64,000 nt of DNA, from assembly GCA_965644265.1 (NCBI GenBank), contig OZ286468.1, positions 10,106,001-10,170,000 on the forward strand, written 5' to 3'. Source of the stretch: Glycera tridactyla (lineage: Eukaryota). The stretch's first letter is position 1, and the number at the start of each line of letters is the position of its first letter. The notes under the pieces were generated by a model. That model saw only the letters and a list, made by a program, of their open reading frames with translations. It was not told the DNA's origin and did no database searches. Position numbers and translations under genes: made by a program. This document shows, piece by piece, positions 11,784 to 12,566 of the stretch.

Positions 11784-12566
11784 CTACACCACGATCCGGC
11801 GGATTCCCCATGCGGGGACTCCATCCCGATCAGCTGCTGATCTTTCGTATCGCCAGTATCGCTTTGGTTCAGGTTCCTCTTCATCACTATCTTCATCTAA
11901 CCAGTTGCGGCGTCTCCTCACAGCTTCTATCCTCCCTCGTACACCTCTGTTCTTCTCGACGGCATCAAGGAGCATCATACTCCACGCCCACCGAGCTGAT
12001 GCATTGCCATGCACCCCATCTACCAGCTGCTGGTATTGGAATGTATATTTCCGGTTTCGCCTCCTCATGATGATTGATGCCAAGTAGGGGGTGAAGACAT
12101 CATTTTCTCTGTTGATGTATTTGATGTGATTCGCCATCTGGATGCAGACCGCTTTATGCTTGGCCTGCCATTGTGAATAGCGACGTGAAAACAGGAGGGT
12201 TGTTGTTTTTCGTTGATGCAGCCGTATCCTATTCCATCTCCCAATGTGCATCGGCACGATTGTGGAGAACACCGGAGTGATCCCTGCCTTCTTCAGACGA
12301 GCAGCTGCATCTTCATACACTTCGGAGACTCTTCTCACACATGCTTGCACGCTCTCCCACATTACACATTCCTGGTAACCATACCTTCGATCTGTCTCCT
12401 TGGTCACTACATCTGGTAGGCCAGCCACAAAGACTGCGGTGTGCGCTTCTTTAAATTGCAAAGCCAATTCTGCCAGCTCATTCAGGGTTGCACCCGGCTG
12501 CACCACCAAAGGCATCTGACACAGATCCAAACCTGTCCCACGACTGGTAGCATAAATCCTGATCAT
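11784..12566 (-). CDS. SGNH/GDSL hydrolase-like (esterase) ORF, 260 aa, inside Gypsy-1 between integrase and the 3' LTR
   Basis: Block-I-like YATSRG, block-II-like VQPGA, block-III-like VFVAGLPD and block-V LVDGVH in the expected order; uninterrupted ORF preceded by the acceptor ttacag|ATG. Confidence 0.75.
   Translation of the reverse strand: MIRIYATSRGTGLDLCQMPLVVQPGATLNELAELALQFKEAHTAVFVAGLPDVVTKETDRRYGYQECVMWESVQACVRRVSEVYEDAAARLKKAGITPVFSTIVPMHIGRWNRIRLHQRKTTTLLFSRRYSQWQAKHKAVCIQMANHIKYINRENDVFTPYLASIIMRRRNRKYTFQYQQLVDGVHGNASARWAWSMMLLDAVEKNRGVRGRIEAVRRRRNWLDEDSDEEEPEPKRYWRYERSAADRDGVPAWGIRRIVV

Follow-up and report, generated by a model that had tools for sequence, protein, structure and literature searches.

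A Gypsy retrotransposon lineage in Glycera tridactyla carries a selected, non-canonical SGNH-fold gene that is probably expressed from a spliced, LTR-started RNA

A stretch of 64,000 nt of the Glycera tridactyla genome (assembly GCA_965644265.1, contig OZ286468.1, positions 10,106,001–10,170,000; hereafter the window, whose own coordinates are used throughout) contains, on its minus strand, a Gypsy retrotransposon with a third open reading frame (ORF3) behind the integrase. A first-pass annotation proposed that this frame encodes an SGNH/GDSL esterase, expressed as a spliced accessory gene instead of env. The locus raises the questions of what ORF3 encodes, whether it is maintained by selection, how it would be expressed, and what its product might do.

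The element has the anatomy of Ty3/Gypsy, with LTRs of the form TG...CA, a target-site duplication (ATCA) flanking both sides, a primer binding site (PBS), a polypurine tract (PPT), and gag followed by protease, RT and RNase H, then integrase, in this order. The 216-nt 5′ LTR (18146–18361; minus strand, as for all features of the element) and the 3′ LTR (11263–11478) are 94% identical, with mismatches at 13 of 217 positions. The PBS (18128–18142) is presumably of the tRNA-Leu type. Downstream lie gag (16893–17796), which encodes CCHC knuckles, and pol (12708–16917), which overlaps gag in the −1 frame and encodes an integrase with an SH3/GPY-type C-terminus, the tail reading QGPYK. ORF3 (11784–12566) is indeed located between the integrase and the PPT as a stop-free frame of 260 aa, bounded by the pol stop (12708) and the PPT (11479–11493). 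Both gag and pol are broken in the window copy, gag by one frame change and one stop, and gag-pol as a whole by three or more frame changes and four or more in-frame stops; together with the differences between the LTRs, this does not agree with the earlier description of an element with few lesions. At such a lesion density, an intact 783-nt ORF has an estimated chance of about 1 in 3, which is unremarkable; the caution that intactness alone is no proof of selection was well placed, and the argument must therefore rest on the family.

The element is inserted in the promoter region of a host gene resembling 6-phosphogluconolactonase, whose first coding exon (18780–18930, plus strand; Pfam Glucosamine_iso, E 0.0013) starts some 420 nt away from the 5′ LTR and runs in the opposite direction. 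Also beyond the 5′ LTR, a LINE-like ORF2 C-terminal fragment without a Pfam match was recognized by eye (19093–19437, plus strand). A fragment beyond the 3′ LTR (10501–10755, minus strand; no Pfam match) is, judging by motif, what we take to be the C-terminus of a tyrosine recombinase. Elsewhere in the window, a Penelope-like ORF with RT plus GIY-YIG is open over 1,018 codons (49569–52622, plus strand).

Between protease and RT, profile and fold matches revealed a degenerate dUTPase-fold domain (16156–16503). The region of the window copy matched yeast dUTPase at a profile E of 2e-4, and dUTPases headed its Foldseek list (best E 7.9e-4); of the 14 members aligned, 5 matched the Pfam dUTPase family (E up to 1), the window copy not being among them, and the conserved motifs of the enzyme are missing from the region in the alignment. 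The degenerate domain is common to the whole Gypsy group (the window copy and 13 related copies, alignment A5). In the available sections of PMC5408684, dUTPase is called rare in retrotransposons, with bdelloids and basidiomycetes as instances.

Searches with ORF3 as a single sequence gave no Pfam match, so that the Pfam check proposed at the outset failed in this form, and nothing below E 1 among PDB sequences; the fold call therefore needs a model or a profile. The AlphaFold model, built on a 19-row alignment, has a mean pLDDT of 89, with residues 1–220 high, and passes the fold check that had been proposed. Foldseek returned 68 matches at E ≤ 0.001, of which all those listed were SGNH/GDSL-type and the best-ranked were sialate O-acetylesterases and GDSL lipases. 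In VIA-align, ORF3 was superposed on OatA with a Z of 17.8 and an rmsd of 2.3 Å over 152 residues, and SGNH-type proteins filled the list. As modelled, the three-layer α/β fold places ORF3 in the SGNH/GDSL superfamily. Among aligned family members, 15 of 132 matched Pfam Lipase_GDSL at E ≤ 0.01.

The motifs TSRG, PGA, AGLPD and DGVH occur in order along ORF3, whose core spans residues 1 to about 210. Comparison with 149 library homologues showed conservation of the block I nucleophile Ser8 (131 of 133 aligned sequences), of the block II Gly25 (128 of 137), and of both Asp183 and His186 of the block V DxxH (143 of 146 each); Gly25 is aligned to the block II Gly of a GDSL scaffold in a low-scoring segment. 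The portion available of PMC10792757, which holds the SGNH block definitions and the Ser-to-Asp case of Oskar, provides a precedent in AlgJ/AlgX for a Thr ahead of the nucleophile Ser. Block III is different: profile alignment places the GLPD of ORF3 on the GTND/GIND of GDSL proteins, and the position of the oxyanion Asn is occupied by Pro51 in the window ORF3 and, among 144 homologues, by Pro in 77, Cys in 48, Thr in 10 and Asn in 8. Thus the series of SGNH blocks described in the first-pass annotation stands as to its motifs and their order, but only S, G and H are present. Residues conserved specifically in this family outside the triad are R9, E66 and N112. On the model and the alignments, ORF3 is an SGNH-fold protein with the triad and without the canonical oxyanion Asn, and is thus a member of a non-canonical subfamily.

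The genome of origin (2.04 Gb) contains 95 ORF3 matches. Stretches of 10 kb were taken for 40 of them, and 34 of these, as well as the window copy, were Gypsy-type. In 34 of the 35 Gypsy-type copies ORF3 follows a same-strand integrase, the exception being a truncated copy; the copies fall in seven families (A–G), with identities to the window ORF3 of 93–97%, 78–79%, 53–57% and 35–44% across families, and 28 of the 35 retain a full-length frame with Ser and DGVH. Over 210 codons, dN/dS of ORF3 was 0.062 between families A and B and 0.068 between D and F, ratios that are approximate since dS is near saturation and that are as low as those of the integrase (0.09–0.11). The closest pair, within family D, gave 0.37, and the most distant (C–D) 0.30 with dS saturated; dS was not computable for four of nine pairs. 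ORF3 is under purifying selection between families, and the comparisons of sister copies and of dN/dS suggested earlier both bore out the gene.

In a tree of RT plus integrase (21 rows), a 100/100 branch separates the seven esterase-bearing families from the other rows, and they are split into (A,B),C versus D,E,(F,G); the same main split appears in the ORF3 tree. One acquisition followed by co-descent with pol is the simplest reading of these trees. A nested insertion is excluded by the fixed position, the between-family dN/dS and the agreement of the ORF3 and pol trees. That ORF3 is a nested insertion or a functionless passenger is extremely improbable in view of a position fixed in seven families, dN/dS of about 0.06 and congruent trees, even though one intact frame says little and dN/dS within family A, calculated from few changes, ranges from 0.23 to 1.57. 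The tail of ORF3 is lengthened in families D–F (L051, L056, L058) by acidic repeats ending in H..RVW, for a total of 316–411 aa, and the lengthened tails still close with the KRSW...WGIRR signature. Four loci of the esterase clade have no esterase match; in L087, which is among these four and belongs to family E, the LTRs are identical and an internal deletion of about 0.9 kb takes out most of ORF3.

We then come to expression. The splice signals are where the first-pass annotation had placed them, in compatible phase: a putative acceptor region (12567–12590) ending in CAG, with its AG at 12568–12567 directly before ORF3; an ATG in the LTR (18176–18174), which would be the last codon of exon 1; and a putative donor, GTGAGT (18173–18168), in the 3′ part of the 5′ LTR. 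The predicted intron is 5,607 nt long and in phase 0. All 35 copies have YAG directly before the ORF3 start (one, a frameshifted copy, set by hand), and the LTR ATG-plus-donor is intact in 28 of the 30 copies that have a PBS, the other two reading ATA. Alignment of the seven family representatives in a 55-nt donor register, set by the six donor letters and not by the preceding TG, revealed invariance only at TG/GTGAGT (7/7), the surrounding LTR having diverged; the ATG-plus-donor motif was found in 333 of 100,000 shuffled LTRs. Families A–C pair an LTR ATG/GTGAGT with YAG/ATG, and families D–G pair an LTR ATG-TTG or ATG-CTG/GTGAGT with an ATG-less CAG/GTC or CAG/GTT. Donor, ATG and acceptor thus covary in phase 0 in all seven families, with the LTR ATG shifted by exactly one codon between clades and the frame kept. 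In family C a stop codon directly precedes the ORF3 ATG, and therefore the AG is not kept for the protein sequence. In unspliced RNA, the LTR ATG would open a four-codon upstream ORF. Contigs of a run listed as RNA (X1) show no joints, and one of them crosses the acceptor unspliced, as DNA would; they point neither way.

This covariation supports the earlier view of ORF3 as a spliced accessory gene, and we put the probability at roughly 0.9 that the LTR transcript is spliced from the LTR donor to the acceptor before ORF3, with the LTR giving the start codon. Expression without the LTR splice, from an internal promoter or from the ORF's own ATG, with the LTR donor serving another purpose, is quite unlikely. 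Families A–C do have an ATG of their own, and in D, F and G Met codons stand in frame a short way upstream, so that there is a strict need for the splice in family E only; however, in all five copies of family E no in-frame ATG occurs from the upstream stop to Ser8, the first Met being residue 28, and neither the fixation of the AG in every copy nor the movement of the LTR ATG by a whole codon, in frame, fits such expression. The gag start shows no AG common to the seven families, which also speaks against a different purpose of the donor; a donor serving gag was rejected on this ground.

What the third-ORF slot holds in neighbouring lineages was analyzed at 16 more distant Gypsy loci (integrase 40–49% identical), which showed no esterase match in 10 kb, the 3′ LTR being clearly reached in five. 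Most of these loci (L071–L086) have long ORFs downstream of the integrase. Among ten relatives scanned, the downstream ORFs of seven matched a Pfam family of C2H2 type (E ≤ 0.05; a single one passed the curated cut-off), and none matched an env family. A donor-like site follows a TATA-like box in the LTR of L071, L073, L074 and L076, and an acceptor-like AG is close to the ORF start in L071 and L074. ORF3 itself is not env-like: it has an SGNH fold and no hydrophobic segment, unlike a fusion glycoprotein with signal peptide and TM anchor. The neighbours carry mostly C2H2-like zinc-finger ORFs, and the slot is therefore an accessory slot rather than a lost env, so that the idea of an esterase replacing env is not supported. 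By this comparison, for which the tree is unrooted, the esterase most likely took over a pre-existing spliced accessory slot. The window holds a second Gypsy element of 12.5 kb (35293–47828, minus strand), in which the 300 nt compared of the terminal repeats show no difference and the ORF3 (38270–40348) is of a true env type (Baculo_F, E 6.7e-14).

The ORF3 family is not confined to Gypsy elements. It comprises 1,838 library representatives at E ≤ 0.001; none of 20 homologue proteins checked had a named cluster member, and the closest Atlas clusters were hypothetical proteins with few annelid and mollusc records, followed by GDSL clusters. Six non-Gypsy loci were fetched first. In three of them (L066, L068 and L070) the homologue lies downstream of a Pfam-confirmed Helitron RepHel gene, with an unassigned ORF of 230–240 aa between the two, and L097 is a further Helitron case; L069 is a near-copy of L068, and in L067 the homologue stands beside a 1,085-aa ORF without a Pfam match. 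The RepHel genes carry OTU (in two), DUF6570, Helitron_like_N and PIF1 domains, and an AG lies 8–17 nt ahead of the ATG in the Helitron homologues inspected. L069, L098, L099 and L108 are Helitron-type by sequence likeness. A reading of the large neighbouring ORFs as Polinton polymerases was rejected, these being the Helitron RepHel. Confirmed loci in metagenomes numbered 2 of 192 candidate stretches (L091:761–1480 and L092:458–1120), and 0 of 49 candidate stretches were confirmed in viral contigs. In both metagenome loci the esterase begins 75–200 nt past the C-terminus of a LINE-type ORF2, downstream of the RT and not in ORF1, the upstream frame of L091 being assigned by matches to RT-bearing ORFs of the Glycera genome and that of L092 by eye. 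We assume this LINE neighbour to be of the CR1/L2 type.

A quickly built tree of 86 rows joins the seven Gypsy ORF3s with two unnamed proteins, P0016 and P0018 (SH-aLRT 94), and puts the Helitron copies in two separate groups apart from Gypsy; its backbone lacks resolution. P0016 and P0018 share the tail signature, which suggests that they belong to the same element type in other assemblies. Derivation of the Gypsy gene from resident Helitrons is not supported by this unrooted tree. The next neighbour of the Gypsy ORF3s (SH-aLRT 87) is formed by P0057 and L065b, which are 75% identical and both have Asp for the catalytic Ser. L065b is one of two single-copy homologues at locus L065 (7865–8530 and 2543–3469), the sixth of the loci fetched first, with no transposon domain seen nearby; it looks exon-bounded, with AG before and GTGAGT after, and is possibly a domesticated copy or a host source. 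About 3.5 kb downstream there is an ORF with eight CCHC knuckles (L101). Another unnamed protein, P0012 (2,135 aa), has six repeats of the ORF3 domain, mostly without the catalytic Ser and His; it attains the Lipase_GDSL_2 cut-off and shows a weak RRM match.

The protein has no hydrophobic segment (19-residue hydropathy maximum 0.86) and a pI of 9.9 (core about 10), and the first strand of the model begins at residue 2, which leaves no room for a signal peptide. Behind the core follows an acidic/basic tail with KRxW; 51 of 142 homologues show the [KR]RxW motif, where shuffling gives 1.3, and the other 91 lack it. The available text of PMC3946659 describes an importin-alpha minor-site NLS class, KRx(W/F/Y)xxAF, which the tail resembles in part, the AF of this class being absent from it.

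We propose the following course of events. The Gypsy lineage would have taken one SGNH-fold gene into its third-ORF slot, where selection has maintained it. An RNA initiated in the LTR would be spliced from the donor, which lies some 30 nt inside the end of the 5′ LTR, to the acceptor at ORF3, removing the PBS, gag and pol; the LTR ATG would start translation of a soluble hydrolase acting in trans, and the short spliced RNA could not be primed for copying. The conservation of Ser8, His186 and Asp183 makes it probable that ORF3 yields a working serine hydrolase whose oxyanion hole is altered, and in that hole the conserved Arg9 beside the Ser may compensate for Pro in place of Asn. A binder of nucleic acid or protein on an SGNH scaffold, with little or no catalysis as in the OSK domain of Oskar, is unlikely: it would agree with the loss of the block III Asn, with the conservation of the three residues outside the triad, with the presence of OSK among the fold matches (Z 15.2), and with the Oskar-like Asp in L065b, but each of Ser, Asp and His is present in about 98% of the aligned homologues and the triad residues remain in the 28 full-length element copies.

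As to the role of such a hydrolase, we give about even odds to a soluble intracellular, probably nuclear accessory enzyme, not an entry protein, which would deacylate a host or element substrate for replication or escape from silencing. A nuclear or intracellular deacylase is favoured because zinc fingers are the alternative cargo of the slot and Helitrons are co-carriers of the family; Helitrons have no particle and yet carry the same esterases, which counts for a role other than entry. Counted against it are the high pI, which would also suit an attachment to acidic membranes like that of ZfL2-1, the missing oxyanion Asn, and L087, which lacks ORF3 despite identical LTRs. A somewhat doubtful alternative is that the RNA is spliced as proposed but encodes a membrane-binding lipid esterase like that of ZfL2-1 ORF1, by which particles would dock on or cross membranes in an env-like manner. 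Activity, a basic character and binding to acidic liposomes are described for the ZfL2-1 esterase (PMC3905857, as far as available), the same role is proposed for Vesta1 in the available sections of PMC5408684 and the membrane proposal is repeated in those of PMC6431247, and the ORF3 core is likewise basic; however, ORF3 has neither a signal nor a transmembrane segment, matches ZfL2-1 only at E 0.61, and belongs to a slot with zinc-finger ORFs in relatives and a family carried by Helitrons. A wider extension of the nuclear-enzyme reading is speculative and, on present sequence comparisons, rather unlikely: ORF3 would belong to a large unnamed Asn-less SGNH subfamily that acts as a portable nuclear effector of unrelated transposons (Gypsy, Helitron and possibly LINE), swappable with zinc-finger regulators in a spliced slot with an LTR start and acting on a host silencing or chromatin substrate, of which hosts would have kept catalytically dead, Oskar-like versions.

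Why unrelated transposon classes repeatedly capture SGNH esterases has been a question since the CR1 ORF1 and the rotifer ORF3. The Gypsy lineage provides a small, stand-alone, strongly selected esterase with a definable mRNA, of which activity, substrate and location are directly testable. If the esterase is indeed nuclear and shared with Helitrons, passage of membranes is not a general answer. The comparison of neighbouring lineages also shows that, in this group of invertebrate Gypsy elements, the third-ORF slot is an exchangeable accessory cassette.

Comparison with known systems shows both common and distinct features. ZfL2-1, the ORF1 esterase of the CR1/L2/RTEX type (PDB 4c1b), was reported to be active and to bind liposomes (Schneider et al. 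2013, PMC3905857); on the part of that report available, it shares with ORF3 the SGNH fold, the Ser-His-Asp triad, a basic surface and carriage by a transposon, but is located upstream of the RT, behind a coiled coil, and retains the oxyanion Asn, whereas ORF3 is a stand-alone third frame. ZfL2-1 was absent among the matches listed in both fold searches, which by itself does not exclude kinship; with the profile value given above, kinship with the CR1/L2 ORF1 esterase appears weak. Fish SGNH genes linked to Helitrons (texim; Tomaszkiewicz et al. 2014, PMC4021074) adjoin RepHel as in L066, L068, L070 and L097. As described in the accessible sections, texim has canonical S-G-N-H and several introns and is reported as unlinked to Helitrons in invertebrates; in the Helitron homologues here, compared with that description, a single open frame downstream of RepHel holds the complete domain, and the Asn is missing. 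The env of Drosophila gypsy (PMC8096092, available sections) is, like ORF3 as predicted, a third ORF on a spliced RNA whose start codon is supplied by an upstream exon; in Drosophila the gag region provides this start and a fusion glycoprotein is made, whereas here the start would lie inside the LTR and the product would be a soluble SGNH protein.

The closest likeness in the literature is to the bdelloid Vesta1 LTR elements, which carry GDSL/SGNH ORF3s common to Athena elements (Rodriguez, Kenefick, Arkhipova 2017, PMC5408684, on the sections available), so that the arrangement is not, as was first thought, undescribed for LTR elements. In the open literature covered (excluding subscription journals, Repbase and bioRxiv supplements, and with sources available in part), we found no SGNH ORF3 in LTR elements beyond Vesta1; within the same limits, no Asn-less subfamily or LTR-encoded start was found. 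The words esterase, SGNH, lipase and hydrolase are all absent from PMC13524379, and esterase and hydrolase from PMC8220671; an earlier annotation of an ORF3-type esterase is possible. On the available description, Vesta1 is likewise Gypsy-type, with an SGNH ORF3 after pol that has no TM domain and whose function is predicted, a dUTPase-type domain between protease and RT, and an esterase shared with other transposon classes. Absence of a dUTPase had been considered as a separator from Vesta and was withdrawn, as the degenerate fold is present; the contrast is between a dUTPase in Vesta and a degenerate dUTPase fold here. The Vesta1 ORF3, compared by description, is about 1.3 kb long and keeps the Asn, whereas ours is 0.78 kb long and has Pro for Asn; GPY/F is reduced to proline in Vesta1, whereas GPY is present here; and the esterase partners are Athena PLEs there, but Helitrons and LINE-adjacent ORFs here. 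The invariant residues of the Vesta1 ORF3 are intact and its within-genome variation is near-neutral, and on ORF3 splicing the available sections hold a general remark, with no splice sites mapped. Relative to Vesta1, the present lineage would thus add, on the sequence comparisons made here, an accessory gene of a non-canonical SGNH type, selected and very probably spliced, in a Gypsy lineage outside the rotifers and of a gene family shared with Helitrons.
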